A DNA stretch of 32,000 nt from Nitrospirota bacterium (GTDB lineage Bacteria; Nitrospirota; Nitrospiria; Nitrospirales; Nitrospiraceae): contig CAWKLH010000025.1 in the NCBI GenBank assembly GCA_963850405.1, forward strand, positions 223,554 to 255,553. Reading direction: 5' to 3'. Both the position numbers and the translations under genes were made by a program. The notes under the pieces were generated by a model. That model did not search any database. It was not told the DNA's origin and saw nothing but the letters and a program-made list of their open reading frames with translations. Of this stretch, positions 255-20,960 are shown piece by piece. Position 1 is the first letter of the stretch; each line of letters starts with the position of its first letter.

Positions 255-767
255 CTACTTGTTATCGCGCACACACCAGACATAGTTCTTGTTGATCTTA
301 AAATCGTTACCGATGATGCCATAGTCGAAGTTTACGTCCCACGCGCTAAACGAATAGTCTTCGTGCTCCGTCGACGTCCAATAGCCATGAAACTCGATGT
401 TGGAGAATGGGTGGCCAGTCGGGAGGGCCGGGGGAGGATAGATCGTGTGATCTGCCAGGGTCTCTAACTCTTTGAGTGTGGGCAAACGCCAGTCTTTCTT
501 GCCTCCGACGGTCTTTTTCGCACAGATACCGGCGGCGCTTTTCCAAACTGTCATCGCTCTCGTCGGTATCACCTCCCATACCAGCCCCGTCTCATTATCC
601 AGCGCTCCCTCATTATTCATGGACTCTAGCACGGTAAACCGTGCGCTCTGCGACTCAGCCGCTTCGGCAGGGGTGACTCCTGAGCCAAAACCAGGCAGTG
701 CCAGGCATCCGACAGCCAGCCCAACAGCCCCGATGCCGCTCACCCATTTGCTTCTTCTGCTTTTCAT
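255..767 (-). CDS. Secreted DUF1566 (Lcl C-terminal domain) family protein
   Basis: Internal ATG at 767 (MKSRRSKW...) is preceded by GGAGG. It has a signal-like N-terminus and the family motif DWRLPTLKELETL. The 5' extension to 836 in the ORF track has no RBS. Confidence 0.75.
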   Translation of the reverse strand: MKSRRSKWVSGIGAVGLAVGCLALPGFGSGVTPAEAAESQSARFTVLESMNNEGALDNETGLVWEVIPTRAMTVWKSAAGICAKKTVGGKKDWRLPTLKELETLADHTIYPPPALPTGHPFSNIEFHGYWTSTEHEDYSFSAWDVNFDYGIIGNDFKINKNYVWCVRDNK

Positions 768-1216: not shown

Positions 1217-2221
1217 CTACAGCCCTTTGAACAGGGCAGGATTGGTTGGACCATCTATCTTCAGCAGGCCAAGGGCGCCTTTTTCTGTGCGGAAGAGCGA
1301 GTGGTCAACCGAAACAAACGTGCCGGGCATTTCGCCTTTAAATTCTCCTAGGGTTGCTTCACCAGGTGTCACCAGGGTGCTTTGGATATGCTCAAGTGGC
1401 GCTTTTGCCACGTTACCTGCAGGCCAGACCCGGTCTAACATCTCACCGATGACGTGCCACGAAGAATCAAAGTTGACTCCGGCATTGCCATAGAACCATC
1501 GAGTGGTCTCTCCTACTTTGGATCGGAGCGGAACTTTGACCAGTGCGGTCATATGGCCATTATGCACGATATAAGACGCATCCGCGTCTTTCACCTTTTG
1601 CTCTGAATAAACCAGGGTATCGTTCTTCTTGCCATCCTTCATGTAGAATTCGCTCTGCATAACATAGAATTCTTTTTCGACAGGCTTCAGCCCACCAACT
1701 GGCTCAACTACGATCAAGCCGTACATGCCACTCAAAACATGTTGTATGTTGGATGGCGCTGCAGTGGAGGACTGATAGACAAAGACGCCTTGGTTGGCGG
1801 CCTTAAATGTGATCTGAGCTTCCTTCCCGGGCTCCGCATTCACCAAGGCTGCTCCGCCACTGACCTTCGTAAAGTCAAGATTGTGGCTCTGCTTGCTGCC
1901 GCTCTTGTTCTTCAAGCGGATTTCAACCGTATCGCCCACCATGACGCGAATCATCGGCCCTGGCACCATTCCATTAATACCCCAGAACTCATAATTATTG
2001 TCGTCGCTAATCGGACCCACCCACTCGGACGCTTCCAAGTTGACCACGACGGTTGCGGGCTGGGTTCGCGTGATGGGAGCGGGGACATTGGGTGCCTTCG
2101 TGAGTTGGGCCTGGATGGTCTCCGCTGACACCACGCCTGCATTGATGGCAAGACACGGAGCCATGACTAATGCGCTGATCAATCCGGCATGACGCATGTT
2201 ATGCAACAAACTCTTGGGCAT
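1217..2221 (-). CDS. NirK-family two-cupredoxin-domain protein lacking the T1Cu Cys and two T2Cu His (NirK-like B)
   Basis: ATG at 2221 with AAAGGAG upstream and a signal peptide (...AINAGVVSA/ET). Hand alignment to A. cycloclastes NirK gives SHNLDFT (H95 and D98 kept, H100->T), VYQSS (H135->Q, C136->S) and HVLSGMYG (H145, M150 kept). WHVIGE keeps H255 and VDHSL keeps H306. Confidence 0.85.
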   Translation of the reverse strand: MPKSLLHNMRHAGLISALVMAPCLAINAGVVSAETIQAQLTKAPNVPAPITRTQPATVVVNLEASEWVGPISDDNNYEFWGINGMVPGPMIRVMVGDTVEIRLKNKSGSKQSHNLDFTKVSGGAALVNAEPGKEAQITFKAANQGVFVYQSSTAAPSNIQHVLSGMYGLIVVEPVGGLKPVEKEFYVMQSEFYMKDGKKNDTLVYSEQKVKDADASYIVHNGHMTALVKVPLRSKVGETTRWFYGNAGVNFDSSWHVIGEMLDRVWPAGNVAKAPLEHIQSTLVTPGEATLGEFKGEMPGTFVSVDHSLFRTEKGALGLLKIDGPTNPALFKGL

Positions 2222-2333
2222 GACGACTCCTTTAATTTTGTATGACTCTGCCGGCCATCATCCTGATCACCTGCCTGCAGAGTTCTTCAGGCCATTGTAA
2301 TTGGCCTAGTTGGCTGGATCCTCTCCTCTACCT

Positions 2334-3314
2334 TCAGTCTACCTTCAGCAGACCAAGGGCGCCTTGTTTCTGTCGATCCTTCACTGGGTCAACGAACGTA
2401 TAGGTGCCCGCCTTGACTTTAAACTCGACTACGACAGCGCCACCTGCAGGAACCTTGGCAACCTTAACATTCTCCGCCGGTGCTGCGTTCAAAGAACCCT
2501 CGGTGTACACCCTGTCGAACGGCTGTTCGAGGAGCTGAAAAGAGTCGACAAAGTTGGGTCCTGGGTTGGTGAAGAAAATCCGAACGGTTTCTCCGGCCTT
2601 GGCTCGAAGAGGAGTTTTGACCATCGAGCTCGCATGGCCGTTATAGACGACATGGGAGGGGCGCTCGTCTAACCCATTTTCGTACGAAAACTCCAAGGTA
2701 TCGCCCTTGGAATAGCCCTCTTTCGTGTAAAACTCGCTTTCCGTGATCTGGAATTCTTTATCGACAGGCTTCAGCCCACCCGCTGGCTCAACGATGATTG
2801 TCCCGTACATGCCATTCGCAACGTGCTCAGGAATGGATGGTGATGCGGTGGCGCAGTGATACAAAAAGATGCCAGGGATGATCATCTTAAACTTTCCCCC
2901 ACTCTCCTGCCCTGGCTCGCTATTGAGCAGGCTCGCTCCGCCGCCTGGTCCCGTGATCGCATGGAAGTCGATATTGTGAGATTCCTTGCTGTCCTTACTG
3001 TTCTTCAGGCGGATTTCAACCGTATCGCCCACCATGACGCGGATCATGGGCCCTGGCACGCTCTTATTAAAACCCCAGAACTCATAATTGTTATCGTTGC
3101 TCAGCGGACCGGCCCACTCGTCCGCTGTCAGGTTGACCACGATGTTGGCTGGCTCGGTTCGTTTGATGGGAGGGGGAACATTGGGTGCAAATCCCAGTTG
3201 GGCCTTGATGGTCTCCGCCGACACCACGCCTGCATTGATGCCGAGATATGGAGTCATGATACATGCGCCGACCAATCCGGCCGTGCGCACACAACGGGAA
3301 AAACTAATAGACAT
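2334..3314 (-). CDS. Copper-containing nitrite reductase (NirK) family protein with complete domain-1 Cu ligands but no H255/H306 equivalents (NirK-like A)
   Basis: ATG at 3314 with AAGGAGG upstream and a signal peptide. SHNIDFH (H95, D98, H100) and LYHCATASPSIPEHVANGMYG (H135, C136, H145, M150) are present. SFQLLEQ has Q at the H255 position and FVDPVKD has P at the H306 position. Confidence 0.85.
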   Translation of the reverse strand: MSISFSRCVRTAGLVGACIMTPYLGINAGVVSAETIKAQLGFAPNVPPPIKRTEPANIVVNLTADEWAGPLSNDNNYEFWGFNKSVPGPMIRVMVGDTVEIRLKNSKDSKESHNIDFHAITGPGGGASLLNSEPGQESGGKFKMIIPGIFLYHCATASPSIPEHVANGMYGTIIVEPAGGLKPVDKEFQITESEFYTKEGYSKGDTLEFSYENGLDERPSHVVYNGHASSMVKTPLRAKAGETVRIFFTNPGPNFVDSFQLLEQPFDRVYTEGSLNAAPAENVKVAKVPAGGAVVVEFKVKAGTYTFVDPVKDRQKQGALGLLKVD

Positions 3315-3422
3315 GGTGCCTCCTTTGATTTTGGACTGCCCTGATAGTTTCTTCTCTCATACGACGTGGGACGAACCGAATGGTTTCAGCCCCGGTTCAG
3401 GGCATTGTCGTTACCCGCCTGC

Positions 3423-3884
3423 TTAAGGTTTGTAACACGAGTGGTCGTGCGGCTTGCCCCCGTTCGAGAACATGTTCTCAAACGCCATCACATGCCAGAT
3501 CTGCTCTTCTGTCAGGCTGTTCTTAAAACCTTTCATTTTCGTCTTCGCGATACCTTCCGATATCCGCCAGAACCAGAAACTGTCGGACCAACGGCAGATA
3601 TTTTTAGGATCGCGCATATCCCGCGCACCTTTCTTTACCGGTTGACCGTCCTTGCCATGGCAGCTGGCACAGTTGACGTTCGGATTCACGTCGCCTTTGT
3701 AAATCTGCTCTCCCTCTTCGATAGCCTTAGGATCTGTCCAGCCTCCAGCTGGCATATGTTTGTCTGCATACTCGGCTGGAACCGGGGGCAAAGGGGGCTC
3801 ATCTTCAGCGAAAGCCATGCCTCCTGACAGAATCAGAGCGCTCCCCATCATCATGATCGCCAAACCGAAATTCCTTCCCGCCAT
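3423..3884 (-). CDS. Periplasmic monoheme class I c-type cytochrome
   Basis: ATG at 3884 with AAGGAGG upstream, a signal peptide, a single CASCH heme motif and a distal Met region (AKTKMKGF). It is the first gene of the cytochrome c / NirK-A / NirK-B co-directional string. Confidence 0.85.
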   Translation of the reverse strand: MAGRNFGLAIMMMGSALILSGGMAFAEDEPPLPPVPAEYADKHMPAGGWTDPKAIEEGEQIYKGDVNPNVNCASCHGKDGQPVKKGARDMRDPKNICRWSDSFWFWRISEGIAKTKMKGFKNSLTEEQIWHVMAFENMFSNGGKPHDHSCYKP

Positions 3885-4134
3885 TCCTGCCTCCTTATTT
3901 TTCTAATTAGTGAGTCTGGTCTACCGACGAGGTCCTATCTCATGGGGCACATCAGGTGTTGGGCCACCACATCGAAAAAATATGTCAATCCTACCACGCC
4001 GATGGCAACAGAGACCATCCAGGCACAACCACACGCCGGGAAAGTTGTCTACCATGCCACCGTTCACTCAAGCCACGCAAGGCCATGTAACATAACAAAT
4101 TACCTAGTGTCAAGCGGTCGCACTACTCTTCTGA

Positions 4135-5528: not shown

Positions 5529-7083
5529 CTATTGAGTATTCGCCAGTTGCCAGGTAAGCGCGAGGACATACCGTGTTATGTTTCGCAAAATTTCAGGATT
5601 GATCGTGTCGGCGGTGTCGGTAGGCTGATGCATGTGCGGGTGGGCCCCGCCGCTCGCGATGCTGACGGTTGAAATTCCTGCCTCTTTGAACGGTTCGTCG
5701 TCGCCGCCGGGCAAGAATCCGTAATAGTCAAGCTTGTTGACCAAACCTACTGCGTACCCTGCTTCCTTTAACGTGGATTTCTTCAACTCTGTGACACGGA
5801 GGATTAACACTCTGTCTCCCACTCCGACATGGTCAATGTTGATCATGGCTTTCGTTGAGCCGAGGGGGATGACAGGTCTCGATGTATAGAGGCGTGACCC
5901 GAGCGAATCTCTCTCATGTCCACTGAATGATAGAAAGAGGATCGATCCGTTGAGGACGCAGGCCGATTTTCCCAAGGGCCCGTGCGACCTCCAGGACTAC
6001 GGCCGTTCCTGATGCATTGTCGTCAGCGCCAGGAAACCAGAGGCCCGCTGGACGTCCAAAATGGTCGCGATGGGCGCCGATGACGATGGTCTCCGGCCCT
6101 GTACCAGGAATCATCCCCACCACGTTCGTCAGCAAGCCGTCCGCTATCGTGGTTTTCCAATGGAGAGATGCATATCGATTGACGAGGCGCGATCGCGCTG
6201 ATGGGGCGTTATTGAGTTGTTCTTGGAGGGTGCGAAGGTGGTCAGCATTGGACTCATCGCCGCTTCCAGCGAGGAGAGTCTCGGCCAATTTCGTGCTGAT
6301 CCATGCGCCAGGGAGGGCTTGGTCAGGGGAGAGCTGCCCATACAATGCGCTGGGCTTTCCTGTGGCGCCGCGGCGAGTCTCATATGGGCTGATAATCGGC
6401 CCCGTTGCGGTCAGATAGGCTACGGCTCCTCGATCTCGCGCGAAGCGGACCTTGTCGGCGTGGCTGATGGAGCCTTGGTAGTGATCCGGTTTGCCACGCA
6501 GGAAGAGTACGATGCAGTTCTTCACATCGACGCCGGCGTAATCGTCGATTCCTTGAGCGGGATCGACAATGCCGTAACCGACGAAGACGACCTGACCCTG
6601 GAGATCGGCAGAGGGGGAGTCAAAGACCGGGAGGTAGTCTCTCCCCAACTGCGCTGTGACCAACTGGTCCGCTGCGCCGGTGCGAACAACCGGGTCGGGT
6701 TCGATGAGTGGCGTGGCGACCATCGAGGTCATGATGCCAACGGGCTCTTCCTTCCTGGCCCCGGGAGAGGGGAAGGCGATTCCCTTGTTGTCAATGAGCG
6801 GTAGTTGTATCCCTGCCACAGTCAATTCCTGTGCAATCCATTGTGCGGATCGCAGGTCATCGGCGGATCCGGCTTGCCGTCCGTTGAAAGCCGGGCTGCT
6901 TAACGTGCGCACGTCGGCGAGCATCCGTTCGCTCGACAGGCTATCGAGTGCACCAAACCATGCACGCTGGTCTTCCTCCGATTGCGCGTAACCTCGGCTC
7001 CCCAAGGGAAGCAGAGCGAGGATGATTCCCAGGAGAATGATCACAACAACGGAGGGGGAGCAGCTGCGCGTCGAGCCGTTCAT
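5529..7083 (-). pseudogene. M28-family aminopeptidase with PA domain, split by one frameshift near 5945
   Basis: The 389-aa ORF ends ...GADDNASGTAVVLEVARALGKIGLRPQR then goes out of frame. The 148-aa ORF resumes with SILFLSFSGHERDSLGS... and HPHMHQPTD. The junction is cgg-a-tcg, and removing 1 nt gives 518 codons. It carries a signal peptide. Confidence 0.8.
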
Positions 7084-8148: not shown

Positions 8149-8982
8149 TTAGGAGATCCTCGTTCGATTCAAGACTCCGCTCGACCGATACCAGGCACAG
8201 AGACGTTTGACTCCACGCAACGTTGGCCCTGCTCCTCCAATTGCGACCGCATCAACGAGGCAATACCATGCGCTGGCGCCACTGGGGGGATTTCCTTGTG
8301 CCCATCCCAGGAGCGGGTCTATAGCTGCCCATTGCCACGCACCGACGGTCGTACCGATCAATTCCAGCCATGTCGTAATGAAAAATGCAGCGAGATAGAC
8401 CAGCGGTGAACGGCCTGTCACCAGCCAGATTAAGAATATGCAAAACAACAATGCACCGACTGCATCTCCTCGCTCAGCATACCCGGTAACACCCCAGATA
8501 GCCCAGGTGCCCCACACGCCTATGACAAACAGCGCAATTGTTCTGGGATGGCGTACAAAGAGGCCGGATCGTGCGAGCGCAACTGCGGTCAGGTACACCA
8601 TGCCATGGCCCGGTGGGACGTAGGCCGGTACATTCTCGAATCGGTAGGTGTAACCCCCCATATAGATGGAGGCGAAATGCTCTCCTACCGTTGCAAAGAT
8701 AACGGCAATCAAGACCTGCACTCGTGTTTCTTTATTCTCACCCAGCAATAAGGCTCCAAGAAAAACCCATGCCAAGGCTCCTAATGCATGCTGTCGCTCG
8801 ACGCTGGCACTGATTTCAAATAAGGAACTCACGGCAACGCTTAGGAATGTAAATGCAGCAATAGCATAATCGCGTAGGCGATGCGTACTGGCCGTATCCG
8901 TGTTCGGAAAATGCCTGAGAGCGGTGCGCCTGACCCTATCGAACCAGAGTCCGGGAGAAGAAGTGGGTGAGGAAGCTTCCAT
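8149..8982 (-). CDS. Integral membrane protein of unknown function, immediately downstream of the amoB terminator
   Basis: 277-aa ORF with about 7 hydrophobic segments. I recognise no family and see no convincing RBS at 8982. Confidence 0.6.
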   Translation of the reverse strand: MEASSPTSSPGLWFDRVRRTALRHFPNTDTASTHRLRDYAIAAFTFLSVAVSSLFEISASVERQHALGALAWVFLGALLLGENKETRVQVLIAVIFATVGEHFASIYMGGYTYRFENVPAYVPPGHGMVYLTAVALARSGLFVRHPRTIALFVIGVWGTWAIWGVTGYAERGDAVGALLFCIFLIWLVTGRSPLVYLAAFFITTWLELIGTTVGAWQWAAIDPLLGWAQGNPPSGASAWYCLVDAVAIGGAGPTLRGVKRLCAWYRSSGVLNRTRIS

Positions 8983-9368: not shown

Positions 9369-10628
9369 TTATGCTCCCAACCGTGTGAAGACCGGGAGTA
9401 CTGGAGCCCAGACTGGATTGATGAGTCGCTCACCAGAATCGGTCCAGGACAGGAACAATCCTGCAAAGCGCTGATCCGGATCGTGGAGAATGTCCACCAA
9501 CCGTTGCACTTCCCACAGGACGTCCTTGGACTCGACTTTAATGTCAACTGATTGGCCAGGCTGGATTGGGGCCTCGTTATCCATCGTCAGACCGGCCGAT
9601 GCGACCAGTTCGGCTGGATAGTTTGGATCAACCCTAGATGCACCAAACTTGTTGGTAAATCTGATACCTGCTGTCGTGAACTCACCGATGGTTACCGGTT
9701 GTGTGCCGTTATTGGTCGCATGAAGAACCATGCGCAATGCGCGGCCCGGAACATCGTACTCTGCATGAATAACGTCAACCGTCAGCGGGTTGGGCTTGAT
9801 CGGCATCGGCTTGATCTTTGCCTCACCAGCCTGGAGAGGGACGCTAATCGGGTGCTTTGCTTCTGCAGCCATGTACCCGACGAGAACAACAGTTAATGTA
9901 AGGACCAATACCGCCACTCCAACTTTTCGGTCGATAGGGTCAAGCAGAATCTCGTCCCCATACGCCGCCAGGACTCGAGCGCGAATCAGGTACATTGGTC
10001 TGATGGCAAAGTATCCGACCCAGAAGATACCGAGAGCGATCCACCAGATATGCCACCCAATTCCAGTCATGCTTCCCATCGTCTCCGAGTCGAATGTTTC
10101 ATTGGTCAGGGTCTTGATCGGATTGGTGAAATCCTCATAGCGACCCGTGATGTCCATCCATCCACCTGGTCCCGCGATTGGACCGGCTTCCTTGACGGCA
10201 AACATGGGATGGATGTGATGGTGGCCGGGGAGTCTGGCCTTTAATTTGACCACGTACTCATAGTCACGGCCGATTTCCATTGGTCCCGAGACGAACATCG
10301 GCGTTCCATTGACTTTCGAGCTCAGACGCACGAAGACGGAGCTGGGGGATCCGACATTGATGAAGGTCCGGGTCGGCTTCACCACCGCACGAGGCCAATC
10401 CTCGGATAAGTGGAACTTTCCCTTCAGCTCTGTCACATCATTGACTTTGGTCGACTTTCCAACCCATTCAGTGTCATACCAATTCACAGTGCGCATCCGC
10501 AGGAATGGCTCCTGCGATCGCTCCCCGTGAGCGAATGCAGGGATAATATCGAGAGCCGGCGTGACTGCCAGCGTCGCCACCCCGCAGAGTCTAATCATCC
10601 ACAGTTTGAAGACGTGTTTGGCAGTCAT
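9369..10628 (-). CDS. amoB: Ammonia monooxygenase subunit B
   Basis: 419 aa with a signal peptide ending AFAHGE (mature N-terminal His). Also present are the HHHIHPMF region, two central TM helices and a C-terminal cupredoxin-like domain. ATGA overlap with the amoA stop. Confidence 0.95.
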
Positions 10629-11482
10629 GCTTTCCCCCCAGAAAGTTTAGCTTTGTCGCCTTGTGGTCCCAAAGTGGCGAATGCAAATACATCGTACACC
10701 TTGGTGGTCCGCTGTCTGTCATCGGTGATGTAGAAGTACGATGTGCAGAAGAACTTCCCAAACTGCCACCAGAGGATGTACGTCAACGAGGACGCGAACG
10801 CGGCGAAGAACGCGGAGATCATGGTGCTGTGACCGCCGAATGTGCGCAGCGATCCAACTTCGATCATCCGGATGTACTCAGGAGTTCCCGTACGAACATA
10901 CATGAAGCCCATATAATCTGCCCATGAGAGCAATGCGCCATCGACGACAATCGGCGTATGGCTATAGGCAAATATAGGCCAGTTGCTCGGATAGAACAGT
11001 GCCGCGAACATCCATGCTCCGATCACTGCCGTCAATGTCCAGTTCCTGGTTAACAAAAGTACGATGTCGAGAACCAAGGCACCGGGGATTGCTGTAGCAG
11101 GCATGACGAAGTTGGGTGGATAGTTAGACCACCACCACCAAGAAGTGTAGACGGCGATCCATTTTCCAGCGCCCAGCGCCAGAATGCAGAGCGTCGCACC
11201 GAATGGCTGTCGGTAGTTCACCCAGTTGTAGTACTGGATAGCGGCGCAGAAGGTGATCAAGGTAACCGGCGTCACGATCGGCCACCACTGACGGTCTTTC
11301 CAATCGAGCCAGAAGTCCCAGTCGCCACACAGCAGGGCCGTGTGCATATGGAAGGTCCCGACGATGGTGACGAACAAAATGGGAATGAAATAGATATAAT
11401 CGATTTTTCTAGACATCGCTACCCCTTCAGGGGGTAACTTCGAAGCCTTGATAATCTCATCGGTTCTAAACATAACTGACAT
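10625..11482 (-). CDS. amoA: Ammonia monooxygenase subunit A
   Basis: Typical AmoA sequence ([16 protein letters not shown]..., [34 protein letters not shown]). GGAGG abuts the ATG at 11482, so the ATG at 11473 (MFRTDE) with 9-nt spacing may be the real start. Confidence 0.95.
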
Positions 11483-11594
11483 CCTCCGTCATTTCAGTCG
11501 GCCGTGGCCAACCAGGCGTTCTGTTCCCTAAGAGTGCCTGATCAGCCGCCGATACCGACCTTATGGTTCATATAGTCTGCATCCGCCCAATTAC

Positions 11595-12413
11595 TTAGTA
11601 CCCGGCCTTGGCATTCGGGTTCACCTGGCTGGGGAACGGATCCAGAATGGCCTTGGGCGCGTTGTTCCAGACCACGTCCGCCAGATTCGACATCCGGCTC
11701 ACGATCTGCGCCGCCACGCCCCCTGCCGCTCCGAACAACCCGCACCAGCCCAACGTCACAAAGCCCCAGTGCAACGGCGCCGCAAACAGCTCATCCACAA
11801 ACCAGAACGCATGCCCCCACTCGTTGAGGCCCACGTTCGGCAGAATGAACATCGGCCCCACCACCGCCGCCACCAACGGGAACGACGTGGCTTGGCTGTA
11901 CAACGGCAACCGCGTCTGCGCATACAGATAACTCGACACGCCGCACGTGATGTACAACGGGAACGTCCCGTAGAACGCCACGATGTGGCTCGCCGTAAAG
12001 CTCGTGTCCCGGATGATCACTTGATGCCACGCCGCATCCTGCTCCAACGTGTAGCTGCCCGCGTAGTACACGCCCCAGATGTAGCACACCAACCACCCCA
12101 TAAAATAAAAGTACCGCTTCAGCTCGAGCTTCGGATCCAGGTTCGTCAGGTTCCGATCCCGCGTCACCCAGATCCACCCGATCGCCGTGGCAAAGAACAC
12201 GGCGTTGGCCAGAATGTTAAACCGCCACAGCCCCATCCACACCGAGTCGAACTCCGGGGTCATGGAGTCCAGGCCGTGCGAGTACCCGAACGTCCGCTGG
12301 TACAGCACCCAAAACACCCCGATCGACAACATCCCCAACCAGCCGAGCTTCGCCGGCTTCGAATCGTACCACTGCGAGATGTCATACCCTCGCCCTGAAC
12401 TGTCTGCAGCCAT
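11595..12413 (-). CDS. amoC: Ammonia monooxygenase subunit C
   Basis: ATG at 12413 ([20 protein letters not shown]...) with AAGGAGG upstream, giving 272 aa with the AmoC/PmoC TM pattern. The 5' extension to 12464 in the ORF track has no RBS. Confidence 0.95.
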
Positions 12414-12640
12414 ACTCCCTACCTCCTTCTGTTTGGATGAAATAGTGAAACTACCGAGCACCACGTTTCAGTGAAAGATCCTTCCCCACAACTACGTCTC
12501 ATTGCTCACGTGGAAGGACCGGTTAAAATGTGAGCAAGTATCCGACAAAAATCTGAGATGAGTCAAGGGAAATATTATGGGTTAGGCTCGCAAAACACTC
12601 GTATAAAGCCTACATGGCAAGCATGGTTCGTGCGACCCCA

Positions 12641-12787: not shown

Positions 12788-14803
12788 TCAATGGACGTGA
12801 TCACCGGGGGGAGGCAAGATCTCTCGCTCTTGATTGAGCTGTGTGATCTGTTGTGTCAAAAGGCTCATGTCTGTCCAGCTTGGTCCATCTCCATGAGGAA
12901 TCCATCGAGCTCGTAGGTATCCGAATCGGTCGAAGAGAAACTCCATGTGACTCTGGCGAGTGCCCTCGCCGAACAAGTCAGGAATCGAGAGTGTTCGGCG
13001 GAACAGCGCATAGCTGCGGGAGATCTCCCGTCCGCCTTGAGTGATGACGGGGAACGGCATTCCTTGCCCGATTGAGGTCAGCTCATCCGGAGGAAGGTCG
13101 GTCATTGGGACTGCCAGGATAGCCGTGCCGGTTGTGGTAATCGCGGTCGAAGCCGTACGAAGTTGATCAAGCCGAACACGCGACTCCGGCCAGGAGAATA
13201 ACACGAGCAGTAGGTTTTGTTTTCCGCGGAAGTCTTTCAAGGTTCCGCTTGAACCATCGTGCGCCGTATACGAAAAGTTCGGGGTGGCCATAAACGGCTG
13301 CTCAGGCAGAATACGAGGCGTGATGATTCTCGATTGGTACCCTCGGGAATTGGCATGGAGAAAGTTAAGGAGATCCCAGCGTTCTTCTTCTGAAAATTTC
13401 TCACCGAAGGCCGGCATGACACCGTTGAATCGTCCGTAGGTCAGCCAATGGAAGAAGTCACCTGCCGTGTGCATGGCGGTATGAGGCTCCGTCAGCAGGT
13501 CGACGGGTTGTTTCGGCAGTGTCTTAGCCAATACCCCGTTCCCTTTAGCCTGTGGGCCATGGCAGGGAATGCAATTCGCCGTGAATAGCTCGACGCCATT
13601 GGCAATCGAGATGGCATCGAACGGAACCGGGGTCTTCCGATACGTCTCCGGGTAGGATTGTACTGCGATGGGATAGAATGTCGCACCAAGTCCGAGGATC
13701 CCCAGCAGGGTTGGAACAGCGATGCGCCACGAGGTTGCCCACTGTTTTTTGCGACTGAGTACGATGGTCGTTCCAGCTATGACCAAGAATACAAGGCCGG
13801 TTAGCACAATGGCCCTTACAAGCCAGTCGTCCCATGTTGCGTCGATAGAGAAGCGGAACGGGTAGGGCCAGTTATCGATGACCTCATGCTTAGCCGGGAC
13901 CGCGTTGGCCAGTAAGGTCGCGACGATGACCAGGAGAATGGCGAGGCCAAACTCGACTGTTACCCATGTCCGAAGTTTTTGCCCACTTGTTGCGGCTTGC
14001 TCGGAGCGTTGCTGAATCGATGGTATCCAAAGAGACTTTGCTCGTGAAGCGATGGAAAGAATGACGGCAAGTAATGTGAGCTTCGTGATAAGCAGCCAAC
14101 CATAGGCTGTCGCGACCAGTCCGGCGTAATTGGTTTCAAACATGCGATTGGCCACGACGATGCCTGATATGACAACAACGATCATTGTGACGAGGGCCAA
14201 TCTCGAGAAGCGAGTCAGCACGTCACCGATATGGGATCTTTCGTCAGCTGATCCGGTCGCGATGGTGGAGGCAACAAGAATTACGCCCGGGAGACCGCCG
14301 AACCAAACGCTAGCTACGATAAGATGTAAGGCATAGATCACGGTGGCCAAGACCGCTTGCTCTTCGGCCGCCGAATGGCTCGCGAGAGAACCGAGGGCCA
14401 GGGGCAGCGCCGCCGCTGATGCACCTATGACGTAGCGCCATTTCGCAGCAAGAGCAACCTGTATGTACAGAACGATCACAAGGACAGCAAGGGCACTCGC
14501 AGCGCGCAGGGTCCAGATAAACCCGATACGAGTCTTCTGGATAAAGTCCAACCAGGCTTGCGGGTTCCAGGCATTCTCAGGGGATCCGGTAGCCTGCGCG
14601 GTCGTCGTAGCCAAGAGACCGACTAGGCCGATCAGTAGGAGGGTGGCCAACCAAGGAAAAGTCTTTTTCAGACGAGCCAGCCACGAATGCCCTGATTCGA
14701 GGCTCTTCGGCTCGGCGATTGCTAAAAAGACGCAACCCCCGATCAGCATCATGTTGGACGCGAGTTGCAGACAGCGAAGCAGCGTACCGACGGCCTCGAT
14801 CAT
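12788..14803 (-). CDS. copD: CopD-family membrane protein fused to a cytochrome c domain and a Cys-less redoxin-like domain
   Basis: 671 aa. The N-terminal part is a multi-TM CopD-like region, followed by a CIPCH heme motif with a downstream GVMPAF Met. The C-terminal part is Prx/Trx-like (GTLKDFRGKQNLLLVLFSWPESR, HMEFLFDRFGYLRARW) with no redox Cys. ATGA overlap with the copC stop. Confidence 0.85.
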   Translation of the reverse strand: MIEAVGTLLRCLQLASNMMLIGGCVFLAIAEPKSLESGHSWLARLKKTFPWLATLLLIGLVGLLATTTAQATGSPENAWNPQAWLDFIQKTRIGFIWTLRAASALAVLVIVLYIQVALAAKWRYVIGASAAALPLALGSLASHSAAEEQAVLATVIYALHLIVASVWFGGLPGVILVASTIATGSADERSHIGDVLTRFSRLALVTMIVVVISGIVVANRMFETNYAGLVATAYGWLLITKLTLLAVILSIASRAKSLWIPSIQQRSEQAATSGQKLRTWVTVEFGLAILLVIVATLLANAVPAKHEVIDNWPYPFRFSIDATWDDWLVRAIVLTGLVFLVIAGTTIVLSRKKQWATSWRIAVPTLLGILGLGATFYPIAVQSYPETYRKTPVPFDAISIANGVELFTANCIPCHGPQAKGNGVLAKTLPKQPVDLLTEPHTAMHTAGDFFHWLTYGRFNGVMPAFGEKFSEEERWDLLNFLHANSRGYQSRIITPRILPEQPFMATPNFSYTAHDGSSGTLKDFRGKQNLLLVLFSWPESRVRLDQLRTASTAITTTGTAILAVPMTDLPPDELTSIGQGMPFPVITQGGREISRSYALFRRTLSIPDLFGEGTRQSHMEFLFDRFGYLRARWIPHGDGPSWTDMSLLTQQITQLNQEREILPPPGDHVH

Positions 14804-17245: not shown

Positions 17246-17375
17246 GTGCTCGAACCATGCGCCTGGATCTGGTCCGATGGTCTATTCACCCCGCGCATGG
17301 ATGTGGCTCAAATAATACTGAGAATCCATTTCGCCGAATTTGAGAGACGAAATCAGAATACATCTATTTATCGAG

Positions 17376-17405
17376 TTGACGACGAGCGCGATACGTGATG
17401 ATAAT
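17376..17405 (+). promoter_or_regulatory. Candidate sigma70 promoter for the bfr pair
   Basis: TTGACG (17376-17381), an 18-nt spacer, then GATAAT (17400-17405), about 40 nt upstream of the bfr ATG. Confidence 0.45.
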
Positions 17406-17444
17406 GAGAGCGACGGTGATGATTTATTCGGAAGGAGGCCAAAG

Positions 17445-17921
17445 ATGAAAGCGAAAGAAGGGGTAATCAACATTCTTAACAAAATCCTGACGGCTGATTT
17501 GACTGCCATCAACCAGTATTTTGTCCATGCCAAGATGTGTGAGAACTGGGGGTATGACCGGCTCTATCATAAAATACGGGAGCGGAGCATCGATGAGATG
17601 AAGGATGCCGACGAACTGATCGGCCATATTCTCTATTTGGAAGGTGTGCCCAATGTGCAGCGAATGAATGCCGTTCAGGTCGGCGAGACGGTAGCTGAAC
17701 AGCTAAAGTTGGACTTGAAGGCGGAGCAGGAGATGCTGGCCTTGTTGAACGAGGGAGTCGTGCATTGCACGAAGATCACCGATTTTACGACCCGGCACAT
17801 GCTTGAAGATATGGCGAAGGATGTTGATGCTCATATCGATTGGATCGAGACTCAGCAGGAAACGATCAAGCAAGTCGGCCTGGAGAACTATTTGGCTGAA
17901 CAGATCAAGAAAGAATCCTGA
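17445..17921 (+). CDS. bfr: Bacterioferritin subunit, heme-ligand type (Met52 present, ferroxidase ligands degenerate)
   Basis: ATG at 17445 with GGAGG upstream. The 158 aa align without gaps to E. coli Bfr: D18, E51, M52, D54, E94, V127, H130. Confidence 0.9.
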   Translation: MKAKEGVINILNKILTADLTAINQYFVHAKMCENWGYDRLYHKIRERSIDEMKDADELIGHILYLEGVPNVQRMNAVQVGETVAEQLKLDLKAEQEMLALLNEGVVHCTKITDFTTRHMLEDMAKDVDAHIDWIETQQETIKQVGLENYLAEQIKKES

Positions 17922-17929
17922 GGGAATCC

Positions 17930-18400
17930 ATGAAAGCCAAAGAAGGCGTCCTTGAGTTTCTTAGTCAGGTGCTCAGATCCGAGTTGACGGCCGTTCACCA
18001 GTACTTGTTGCACGCGGCGCTGTGTAAGAATTGGGGATACGAGCGGCTGCATGAGCACTACAGTCACTTGGCGAATGAAGAAGTCCAACACTCTGCCGGG
18101 CTGATAGACCATATCTTGTACCTAAACGGTACACCAGAGGTAGGACATCTCGATACCGTGGCGCATGGGCCAAATGTGGAAGTGCTGCTTCGCGCCGATC
18201 TGGAATTTGAACGCGAAGACGTCGAATTGCTTCGAGGGGCGATCGCTCATTGCGCGAAAGTCAGTGATTTCACAACCCGTCATTTGCTCGAACATATGAT
18301 TGAAGATTCAGAAGATCACGTCGACTGGTTTGAGACTCGGCTGAGAACCATCGGTCAGGTTGGCCTCGACCGGTTCTTGTCAGAGCAGATCAAGAAGTAA
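17930..18400 (+). CDS. bfr: Bacterioferritin subunit, ferroxidase type (Met52 replaced by Val)
   Basis: It starts 8 nt after the first bfr. The 156 aa align without gaps: E18, E51, V52, H54, E94, S127/E128, H130. Confidence 0.9.
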   Translation: MKAKEGVLEFLSQVLRSELTAVHQYLLHAALCKNWGYERLHEHYSHLANEEVQHSAGLIDHILYLNGTPEVGHLDTVAHGPNVEVLLRADLEFEREDVELLRGAIAHCAKVSDFTTRHLLEHMIEDSEDHVDWFETRLRTIGQVGLDRFLSEQIKK

Positions 18401-19139: not shown

Positions 19140-20870
19140 TTACTGATAGTCCTCGTTCAATGCCTTTAGGAAAGCTGCTAGCGGGGCGACATCCTGAGCT
19201 GTGAGGCCAATCCCCCCCAGTTCACGATCGCCGTTCCGCAGACCACCTGTACGTTGGAGGTCTGATACCTCACGGTAGAAATCCACAATCTGCTCAAGTG
19301 TGTCGAATTGACCGTTGTGCATGAAGGGCTCCGAGTGTCCGAGGTCGCGAAGGCCGGGTGTCTTGAATCGCGCAATTGCACGATCGAGAAGGGTTGCATC
19401 CGGTAGTGGACAAGGCTGTTGATCGTCGCAGAGCAGCGCATGGATCTTTGGCTGCGGTTCTGGCATGTCTGGATTGGCGAACACGTTCCACGCTCCAAGA
19501 TCCGTTAAGACCGGAAGGCCGACTGTCGGGATGGCGCGGAATGGTTCACGCGCGGCTGGATGGGTCTCTGTGGCTGGAAGGAACTGGTCGTAGTTGCTAT
19601 TCCGGGTGGCCAAGTTTGGAATCGACAAGCTTGTGAATTGTCCGGCCCCGTGGATGAGATCGTATTCTTTCTGCGTCGTGCCGGTGTTATGCAGTTTAAA
19701 ATCCGTAAAGTTGGGTACCGCATGACAGGCGATACAATTCCCGATCTTACCAGCACTTCTTTCAGCTGGTGAGGCGGGCAGCGCTGAGGGTTCCGCTAGG
19801 AATATCTTCAATCCAGCGAGCTCTGTGGCTCCGAACGCGAAGGCTTGAGTATGAAATTGAAACCGTCCATCTGTTCGGTTGGGGTTGGAGGTCACGAACT
19901 GCGGAGAGAATCCTGGCGCATTCACAAGCGCTCGGAGTCGTTGGCTATAGGTGAGCGGTGACTCGTTCGGATTTGGCTGCTGGGGGAGTGCGTTGGTCTC
20001 CAGAAAGACATCGAAGGGAGAGCGGATCGGCGCGCCGCTTTCTTCGGTTTGCGAAAAGAGGAGGCCGTTGACGTACGCCGCGACCACCCGCACGACGGCA
20101 TCAAAAATTTCTTGATCGCTACCTGATCCGACAAAGGCACGAAATTTAGCAGGCAGGCTGAGCTCATCAGGAATAGAAGGGTCGGTGCCAGTAAACACAA
20201 TGCGATAAGACAAGCCGGTGTCGGTCAGGTCAAAGGAGCCATCATCTTCCCGAACCACCCTTGCAATGTGCTGAATGGCCTGGGCTCTTTCTCCTGGTAG
20301 CCAGCCGAAGTTCCGTCCGGTAAAGGTTGCCGCGATCAAGTCTTCCATGGAGTTAAACTCAGCATCGAAATGGAACAAAACGCCTCCTGGCCTCTCCAGA
20401 GTCGAATTGACTAATGGCGGAGAGTTTCGTGGAGCGTGCGTCTTACCATCGGTTCTTGCCGGAATCGGGCTTCGGCGCGCGAAGTCGGCATAGGTTCGCA
20501 TACCGCCACCAGGAGATGAGAGGACGTCATCCACTAAATGGCAGGCGCGACAGTTCATCGACATCCCTTTGAACGGTCCCGGGTCGATCGGTGCGCCCAA
20601 GGTTTCAAGTGTATTGACGACGCCATCGCCTGCCTTAGGATCGTTGATGGCGCCACCATTACCCAAGAACACCTTGAACGCTTGGGCGAATCGCGTGTCC
20701 AGAAATAACCGTTCCCCGAGAGCTTCTGCGGCTGCCGGTGTCCCAGTAGCCGTGGGCGGCGGGGGAGTATTCTCAGGTCCTGAGCAGGCGGCAAGTTCAG
20801 CGAGCAAAAGAATCATCGGGAGGAAGGTATGGGTGATCTTTGGTTGAGGTGCAGTGAGTGTCGGGCTCAT
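19140..20870 (-). CDS. Diheme cytochrome c peroxidase / MauG-family lipoprotein (large form)
   Basis: Two CxxCH motifs (CRACH, CIACH) about 275 residues apart and a lipobox (LAACSG). The start is uncertain: ATG at 20870 with AAAGGAA upstream, or GTG at 20930. Confidence 0.8.
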   Translation of the reverse strand: MSPTLTAPQPKITHTFLPMILLLAELAACSGPENTPPPPTATGTPAAAEALGERLFLDTRFAQAFKVFLGNGGAINDPKAGDGVVNTLETLGAPIDPGPFKGMSMNCRACHLVDDVLSSPGGGMRTYADFARRSPIPARTDGKTHAPRNSPPLVNSTLERPGGVLFHFDAEFNSMEDLIAATFTGRNFGWLPGERAQAIQHIARVVREDDGSFDLTDTGLSYRIVFTGTDPSIPDELSLPAKFRAFVGSGSDQEIFDAVVRVVAAYVNGLLFSQTEESGAPIRSPFDVFLETNALPQQPNPNESPLTYSQRLRALVNAPGFSPQFVTSNPNRTDGRFQFHTQAFAFGATELAGLKIFLAEPSALPASPAERSAGKIGNCIACHAVPNFTDFKLHNTGTTQKEYDLIHGAGQFTSLSIPNLATRNSNYDQFLPATETHPAAREPFRAIPTVGLPVLTDLGAWNVFANPDMPEPQPKIHALLCDDQQPCPLPDATLLDRAIARFKTPGLRDLGHSEPFMHNGQFDTLEQIVDFYREVSDLQRTGGLRNGDRELGGIGLTAQDVAPLAAFLKALNEDYQ

Positions 20871-20960
20871 GGCGTCGTGGTTCCTTTCTGCAAAATCTGT
20901 TTGGTCCTTCTGAACGCTCTCTTGGCTCACATCTACGGGAGTCCATCGTTATGAATGGGA

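Follow-up and report, generated by a model that had tools for sequence, protein, structure and literature searches.

A stretch of 32,000 nucleotides of DNA from a Nitrospirota bacterium (GenBank assembly GCA_963850405.1, contig CAWKLH010000025.1, positions 223,554 to 255,553), here called the window, was found to carry two adjacent genes for paralogues of the copper nitrite reductase NirK in which different halves of the catalytic copper site have been lost. The upstream paralogue, here designated A, keeps the residues that domain 1 gives to this site, and the downstream paralogue, designated B, keeps those given by domain 2. On comparison of their sequences, A and B probably make up a single heteromeric trimer of the NirK type, A2B or AB2, whose complete active site would be formed between domain 1 of A and domain 2 of B. 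To our knowledge, NirK has been described only as a homotrimer. The window is part of the ammonia-oxidation (amo/hao) island of a complete ammonia-oxidizing (comammox) Nitrospira, and the loci closest to it are those of comammox Nitrospira metagenome-assembled genomes (MAGs) such as RSF1, with 98% identity.

In NirK, D98, H100 and H135 are provided by domain 1 of one subunit and His255, Ile257 and His306 by domain 2 of its neighbour. The type 2 copper (T2Cu) is held between adjacent monomers by His100, His135 and His306, and Asp98 and His255 are the catalytic residues (PMC5571812). Residues of A and B were placed on this numbering by HMMER alignments, by a MAFFT alignment of 122 sequences and by codon-by-codon read-out; the 49 canonical homologues in the 122-sequence alignment read HDHHCHMHH at the nine classical columns. 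In A, residues H113, D116, H118, H153, C154, H164 and M169 correspond to H95, D98, H100, H135, C136, H145 and M150, while Q260 is found at the H255 position and P310 at the H306 position, exactly as the original prediction had read them from a hand alignment. The four ligands of the type 1 copper (T1Cu), His95, Cys136, His145 and Met150, are all present in A, and the Cys-His bridge between T1Cu and T2Cu is intact. Further changes in A are the replacement of I257 by L, the rewriting of the H255 strand from SWHiIGEIFD to SFQLLEQPFD and the absence of the C-terminal tail of ~12 residues. Position 255 is Q in 31/31 species-level orthologues of A, with one K in a metagenome contig, and position 306 is occupied by P, A, V, T or S.

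In B, residues H113, D116, H161, M166, H256 and H307 correspond to H95, D98, H145, M150, H255 and H306, and T118, Q150 and S151 are found at the H100, H135 and C136 positions, such that the T1Cu Cys is absent and the T1Cu ligand columns read H, S, H, M. Three residues are deleted directly past the H100 position, and the C-terminal tail is kept. The losses claimed earlier for B (H100T, H135Q and C136S, with H255 and H306 kept) were recovered in the gene of the window, with one correction: Thr at position 100 is specific to its lineage and not fixed, the column being hypervariable (Q, G, T, S, N or H by lineage). Position 135 is Q, R or S, and position 136 is S in 28/29 orthologues and P in the remaining one. 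At the D98, H255 and I257 columns A reads D, Q, L and B reads D, H, I, so that this set is complete only in B. At the three T2Cu ligand columns A reads H, H, P and B reads T, Q, H; as had been proposed, neither protein alone encodes the full set that a homotrimer needs on a single polypeptide. Alignment to NirK profiles and structures placed no His at positions 255 or 306 of A or at positions 100 or 135 of B, and no other His was found near the lost ligand positions in either sequence.

The number of His ligands available depends on which domains meet. An A(domain 1):A(domain 2) interface has two, a B(domain 1):B(domain 2) interface has one and a B(domain 1):A(domain 2) interface has none. The A(domain 1):B(domain 2) pairing has three, together with D98, H255, I257 and the Cys136-His135 wire leading to the T1Cu of A, and this full catalytic set is absent from every other pairing. 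The homologues fall into three discrete classes, A, B and canonical, with zero intermediates seen, which argues that the residue pattern of A and B did not arise by chance.

Both genes encode intact two-domain NirK folds, as concluded from full-length alignment and from superposition of models. For both, the best structural match is the core of 6THE (Bradyrhizobium sp. ORS 375), over residues ~37-326 of A (E 8e-82) and ~35-333 of B (E 3e-76), and several hundred PDB chains match A and B, which are 54% identical to each other. Against TIGR02376, the NirK equivalog profile, A scores 236.8 bits and B 230.3 bits, both under the cut-off of 296.3. Single-chain AlphaFold models, built on homologue alignments, had a predicted local distance difference test (pLDDT) value of 86 for A and 85 for B and were confident beyond the first 31 residues; superposed on AniA, the RpNiR core and 6THE, they gave target-normalised template-modelling (TM) scores of ~0.9 and a root-mean-square deviation of ~2 Å. 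The first 31 residues of both proteins are hydrophobic, end at AGVVSA/ETI and are unstructured in the models. These N-termini fit Sec signal peptides, so that the claim that both proteins are exported stands as a prediction.

Both genes are maintained by purifying selection, as judged from pairwise ratios of non-synonymous to synonymous substitution (dN/dS) within clades, at 0.24 in A and 0.22 in B, against 0.18 in the canonical sister clade. The changes on the stems of the two clades were counted at sites at least 90% conserved in canonical NirK, within two domain-1 segments (D98/H100; H135/C136-M150) and two domain-2 strands (H255; H306) taken as the half-sites. The domain-1 half-site holds 0 changes specific to A and 15 specific to B, and the domain-2 half-site 8 specific to A and 2 specific to B (Fisher p = 4e-5). 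Constraint within each clade, expressed as Shannon entropy relative to the rest of the protein, follows the same division. The ratio for the domain-1 half-site is 0.27 in A and 1.47 in B (canonical, 0.29), and that for the domain-2 half-site is 1.57 in A and 0.33 in B (canonical, 0.69). In an independent metagenome set the ratios in A are 0.26 (domain 1) and 1.79 (domain 2), and those in B 1.52 and 0.57, in the same order. A sliding window gave regions that coincide with the four copper-site motifs: 116-127 and 152-163 are among those where B varies most by comparison with A, and 257-268 and 310-321 among those where the reverse holds. Conservation of domain 1 of A and domain 2 of B and relaxation of domain 2 of A and domain 1 of B are exactly complementary. 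As the conserved half of B has no conserved partner in B, and likewise for A, the simplest explanation is a mixed trimer in which the conserved half of A is set against that of B.

Other asymmetric segments (A-numbering) were seen in both data sets, 54-65 and 226-237 being variable in A and conserved in B, and 135-146 and 206-217 variable in B and conserved in A. They may be the remainder of the live and dead subunit interfaces.

The occurrence of the two genes together was surveyed by searching species-representative genomes with A, which gave 56 loci, essentially all in Nitrospira, and protein look-ups added 4 to make 60. An A-type gene is present in 31 of these and one canonical NirK gene in 24. 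Wherever the contig runs past A, a B-type gene is the next one (29/29 species-level loci), and when metagenome contigs were searched separately with B, A was found directly upstream of B in ~45 further loci. The order cytochrome c-A-B-Lcl_C is therefore found in ~75 independent genome and metagenome loci, among them assemblies from drinking-water filters, groundwater, lakes and other environments. No convincing solo A or solo B was found among the species-level and metagenome loci scanned. An orthologue of the cytochrome c gene lies directly 5' of NirK in nearly all 60 Nitrospira loci, A-B and canonical. The Lcl_C gene is 3' of B in essentially every A-B locus and is absent from the 24 canonical loci; its linkage to the pair is as strict as the A-B linkage itself. 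No contig or assembly prefix was common to A-B and canonical loci, a weak result of a pattern-based scan, which suggests that the pair replaces the canonical gene.

Two metagenome loci at first appeared to break this rule, and both were rejected as independent solo or canonical genes and assigned to A/B junction products. In one, L098 (Ga0134121_10017633, 237-2713), the cytochrome gene is followed directly by B, with no A. This B is 100% identical to the B of a neighbouring population (L097). Its junction falls within the first ~90 nt, a stretch over which the A and B genes of that lineage share 97-100% identity, and the locus is a deletion or an assembly collapse. The other, L099 (JGI contig Ga0209895_1000842, 185-1237), is a clean hybrid of domain 1 of A and domain 2 of B, followed by an Lcl gene 98% identical to that of the window. 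It reads HDHHCHMHH, the full canonical ligand set, and its crossover is in the inter-domain linker GGLKPV(D/E)KEF, within a 20-nt stretch that is identical in A and B; 20 nt of identity is short for an assembly artefact. A second, independent A(domain 1)/B(domain 2) hybrid, P0082 (ENA, partial, 243 aa), has its crossover in the same linker and also carries the full ligand set. The two hybrids are either natural unequal-crossover 'revertants' or assembly chimeras, and from their sequences would encode a self-sufficient canonical NirK. Their full ligand sets indicate that, on paper, the halves of A and B have remained compatible with each other.

A neighbour-joining tree recovers A and B as two monophyletic sister clades (bootstrap 100, 100 and 93), and together they are sister to the single-copy canonical cytochrome c-linked NirK of Nitrospira, with the longer stem leading to B. 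This topology agrees with a single tandem duplication of a canonical gene and the loss of different residues from the two copies ahead of the diversification of the lineages. Among the homologues, intermediates of any kind, such as one canonical and one degenerate copy, were not seen. In L044 and three further canonical loci, amoB was observed near the cytochrome c-NirK genes, ~2-3 kb downstream of the single NirK, and the amo-linked position therefore seems older than the duplication.

The 5' parts of the two genes are more alike than the rest. High identity between codons 1-105 of B (2221-1907) and of A (3314-3000) ends just before the H95-H100 motif, identical codons are used at shared amino acids at a rate of 0.70-0.89 in the 5' third and 0.38-0.67 in the 3' third, and in L024, L027-L029 and L001/2 nucleotide identity is ~0.9 over the first 45 codons. 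This suggests episodic, lineage-specific 5' gene conversion that never crosses the diverged active-site segments. Ongoing concerted evolution of A and B was considered and rejected, since the B gene of the same genome is the best match to A in only 1/28 genomes.

The course of events proposed is as follows. A canonical cytochrome-c-linked Nitrospira NirK gene would have been duplicated in tandem, copy A losing the domain-2 half-site and copy B the domain-1 half-site and the T1 copper Cys. The A(domain 1):B(domain 2) interface would then carry all three His, both acid-base residues and the Cys136-His135 wire. In a trimer ring, whether A2B or AB2, exactly one complete T1-to-T2 unit would result and the other two interfaces would be dead. 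The co-encoded periplasmic monohaem cytochrome c would trade electrons with the T1 copper of A, and the chemistry would be that of the reversible NO2-/NO couple, NO being nitric oxide. The main task of the trimer would be the handling of NO derived from HAO, most likely its oxidation to nitrite with delivery of the electron to the cytochrome. The physical heteromer, its stoichiometry, its copper loading, the partner cytochrome and the direction of catalysis are what we infer. The idea of an obligate heteromer, put forward in the original prediction, has come through residue mapping by sequence and by fold, the search for solo genes and the selection and constraint tests, all of them computational.

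Several points weigh against this reading. The case for an association of A with B is an indirect one, drawn from comparative analysis. The half-site segments were chosen with the alignment already seen, which is mitigated by the sliding window, where no segments are preset, and the conservation of the domain-1 segments of A could partly reflect the T1Cu site alone. In its 'dead' half B keeps H95, H145, M150 and D98 in 29/29 orthologues, for which the chance is ~0.06, while Q at position 255 of A is nearly invariant, and H100 survives in one abundant lineage of B. A trimer with a single active site is a wasteful design with no evident advantage; a neutral ratchet may account for it. As for the direction of the reaction, Kits et al. 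argue that oxidation of NO by NirK is kinetically unfavourable. The segment around the retained residues of B (H113, D116, H161 and M166; 1724-1885, minus strand) is the most variable part of the protein, and the remnant His2-Met(-Ser) site might still bind something.

The position of the pair bears on its role. At least 22 A-B loci have haoA-haoB-cycA-cycB at a distance of 1-4 kb, and no hao cluster was found within 8 kb in any of the 24 canonical-NirK loci (0/24). In the window itself amoC-amoA-amoB are at 9369-12464 (minus strand), with amoB 5.5 kb from the NirK pair. A duplicated nirK beside the HAO cluster was reported by Palomo et al. 2022 in Microbiome for comammox clade A2 and some clade B (PMC9714041, Fig. 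S6) and was proposed to have been transferred horizontally together with hao. Comammox has no NcyA (nitrosocyanin) and no other NO oxidoreductase candidate, and NirK has been discussed as the enzyme that might be its missing NO oxidoreductase (PMC6478695; PMC8115096). The tie to hao and amo, the lack of nitrosocyanin and the candidacy of NirK together point to the handling of HAO-derived NO, with a leaning to NO oxidation. The monohaem cytochrome c that the original prediction placed ahead of the pair as a possible electron donor is indeed co-directional with it and has a single haem-binding motif, CASCH (residue 72, the sole CxxCH). As its gene is common to canonical and A-B loci, the cytochrome is the likely redox partner of the T1 copper of A. 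It did not specifically resemble the cytochrome domains tethered to RpNiR or PhNiR, and its only matches were weak ones to cytochrome c4 and c-552. Physiologically, NO oxidation appears at least as likely as nitrite reduction. The fullest form of this proposal, that in clade A2 and some clade B comammox a heterotrimeric, single-site NirK, co-transferred with hao and wired to a cytochrome, is the NO-to-nitrite oxidoreductase, is put forward only tentatively and is more doubtful than the heteromer itself.

The same heteromer could run in the classical direction, as a cytochrome-c-dependent nitrite reductase making NO for redox balancing or signalling, and this is a serious alternative, quite possible if not what we expect. 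Nitrite reduction is the activity of every NirK characterised so far, and the A:B site retains D98 and H255, which deliver protons, as well as the gating residue I257. Kits et al. judge reverse NirK kinetically unfavourable and describe a steady release of NO from N. inopinata given nitrite. The classical direction accords less well with the ties of the pair to haoAB-cycAB and amoCAB, unlike the canonical single copy, with its apparent co-transfer with hao (PMC9714041), and with a comammox physiology that has neither NcyA nor another NO oxidoreductase candidate. If A and B instead formed separate homotrimers, A3 being a T1Cu electron-transfer protein or a two-His-site enzyme and B3 a copper-poor protein of some further role, they would be encoded together because they share one pathway, not one molecule. 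The homotrimer is the default of the family, A has a full T1Cu site, Q255 of A is nearly invariant, and B keeps H95, H145, M150 and D98 beyond simple expectation; this arrangement is nevertheless unlikely, since it predicts that the altered half-sites are constrained, and these evolve fastest in each protein, with position 306 of A and position 100 of B drifting freely. Moreover, the H255/I257/H306 strands of B are tighter than those of canonical NirK, yet would face a variable partner in B3, and the strict adjacency of A and B in ~75 loci also counts against it.

The alternative that B is a dead 'prozyme'-type partner or assembly factor, which stabilises A and gives no active-site residues, such that no canonical T2Cu is formed, would account for the absence of T1Cu and of two T2 ligands from B. 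The C-terminal tail of NirK reaches the neighbouring subunit. This tail is present only in B of the two proteins, and a tail-less AcNiR structure, 2AVF, exists. Such a role is nonetheless improbable, because the domain-2 catalytic strands are the most conserved segments of B, with H255, I257 and H306 in 29/29 orthologues, and because D98, H100 and H135 of A are invariant although A lacks a third His of its own. Very improbable, finally, is that the genes are decaying duplicates or products of assembly or annotation. Copper ligands have been lost and frameshifted copies do occur (L030, L077 and L116), but these are scattered single contigs, with no loss of A or B across a lineage, and full-length open reading frames with Shine-Dalgarno sites are found in ~75 independent assemblies from many habitats. 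A reading as pseudogenes was rejected on these intact frames and on the dN/dS of 0.22-0.24 in both genes. The mixed trimer of A and B remains the reading we prefer.

The open reading frames of the cytochrome c, A and B are present in the window at the coordinates of Table 1, as had been reported, and with the Lcl_C gene form a co-directional string of four genes on the minus strand. Strong Shine-Dalgarno sites lie 4-5 nt 5' of the ATG of the cytochrome c, A and B genes, that of the cytochrome being AAGGAGG, 5 nt from its ATG. A scan of the region for promoters and terminators gave counts not above those of shuffled controls and no convincing terminator between A and B, and an Rfam scan of the window gave no match.

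Table 1 Features of the nirK pair and its gene string in the window (coordinates are window positions; residue correspondences in canonical NirK numbering).
Feature	Position	Strand	Remarks
Monohaem class-I cytochrome c, 153 aa	3423..3884	-	Pfam PF13442 + PF00034; signal peptide; first gene of the string
NirK paralogue A, 326 aa	2334..3314	-	Complete T1Cu site and domain-1 T2Cu half (D98, H100, H135)
NirK paralogue B, 334 aa	1217..2221	-	Domain-2 half (H255, I257, H306) and C-terminal tail intact
Lcl_C (PF07603) protein, secreted/lipoprotein-like, 170 aa from internal ATG	255..767	-	Pfam 1.8e-25; closes the conserved string
Tentative sigma-70-like promoter TTGCCA-18-CATATT with TG	3979..4008	-	Consensus scan only; ~95 nt 5' of the cytochrome ATG
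A codons H113-N-I-D116-F-H118	2961..2978	-	H95 (T1Cu), D98 (catalytic), H100 (T2Cu); invariant in 31/31 A orthologues
A codons H153-C154 ... H164 ... M169	2808..2858	-	H135 (T2Cu), C136, H145, M150 (T1Cu)
A codons Q260-L-L262	2529..2537	-	H255 and I257 positions, both lost
A codon P310	2385..2387	-	H306 position (third T2Cu ligand), lost
B codon T118	1868..1870	-	H100 position
B codons Q150-S151	1769..1774	-	H135 and C136 positions
B codons H256-V-I258	1448..1456	-	H255 and I257 equivalents retained; 29/29
B codon H307	1301..1303	-	H306 equivalent retained; 29/29

The N-terminus of the Lcl_C protein has a signal peptide or a possible lipobox (LAVGC), and a search of PDB sequences with this protein gave no match. 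It may be a further component of the system, or an assembly or anchoring factor. Beyond amoCAB is a gene for a CopD-cytochrome c fusion protein of 671 aa (12788-14803, minus strand). Two adjacent ferritin-like (bacterioferritin-type) genes are at 17340-18400 (plus strand), and 19140-20930 (minus strand) encodes a protein of 596 aa whose C-terminus is like that of the dihaem peroxidases MbnH/MauG, which points to iron and copper handling in the same island. An M28 peptidase in the region 5529-7083 appears split over two overlapping open reading frames (5914-7083 and 5529-5975, minus strand). Its Pfam match takes in no more than positions 1-56 of a profile of 193 and lies at the C-terminus of the first frame (residues 320-379); the split looks like a frameshift or a sequencing error. 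A 'tRNA-???' with a two-base anticodon, called by ARAGORN at 8700-8795 (minus strand), lies within the open reading frame 8149-8982, has no Rfam match and is almost certainly a false positive.

A and B have the two-cupredoxin-domain fold of the canonical homotrimeric copper nitrite reductases (AniA, the RpNiR core and the 6THE core), at 43-47% identity, A also having their T1Cu motif, and in the canonical enzymes the T2Cu is split between domain 1 and the domain 2 of the neighbour (PMC5571812). They differ in that no single A or B polypeptide has the full ligand set, in that both fall below the TIGR02376 cut-off, and in that the complete site would span two gene products and number at most one per trimer, where canonical NirK has three. 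Closer still is the single-copy, cytochrome c-linked Nitrospira NirK, which includes those of the clade B MAGs Rifle RCB and palsa_1310 and is 62-64% identical to A. It has the same monohaem cytochrome c gene 5' and the same two-residue insertion in the Cys-His loop, and some copies are near amoB, as is the A-B pair; unlike the pair, it is one HDHHCHMHH gene, with no Lcl_C 3' and no hao within 8 kb.

The ncgABC-nirK operon of Nitrosomonas europaea, in which NcgA is a two-domain multicopper oxidase (PDB 4KNS), offers a parallel from another nitrifier, in that c-type cytochromes are encoded there beside a pair of trimeric paralogues of the cupredoxin type, NcgA and NirK. Both A and B matched 4KNS as a homologue (E ~1e-33 to 1e-35). 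Unlike A and B, however, NcgA and NirK of N. europaea are each complete, with their own copper sites, are thought to be separate homotrimers and show no complementary loss. In trypanosomatids, deoxyhypusine synthase (DHSc/DHSp) and AdoMetDC/prozyme are heteromers of paralogues that share a complementarily degenerate active site. Their logic is that proposed for A and B, with a site at the interface, each paralogue impaired alone after duplication, activity dependent on the heteromer and some interfaces dead. This is an analogy only: the folds are unrelated, the proteins are eukaryotic and without metal centres, and the likeness is one of evolutionary mechanism.

The locus is the same as the 'duplicated nirK' of Palomo et al. 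2022 (PMC9714041), two adjacent nirK genes by haoAB-cycAB, so that the tandem duplication itself is already published. There the genes were treated as two nirK copies, with no mention of copper-ligand loss, complementarity or a heteromer. No report of complementary ligand loss or of a heteromeric NirK was found in the literature searched, which mostly excluded subscription journals, and the split active site is apparently unreported.

NirK is among the best-studied metalloenzymes, and the pair is of interest for researchers on copper enzymes and on nitrification alike. If the proposal is true, A and B would form a heteromeric copper nitrite reductase, the first to be found in nature, and a textbook split of a shared active site between duplicates, a clean natural case of active-site subfunctionalisation that comes with candidate 'revertant' hybrids. 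The trimer would have a single addressable T1-T2 pair, in which electron transfer could be followed without crosstalk among three sites. Counts of 'nirK' in metagenomes score each A-B locus as two nitrite reductases, while neither gene alone can encode one. For the biology of comammox Nitrospira, efforts to find the NO-oxidising step still missing from complete ammonia oxidation would be redirected.

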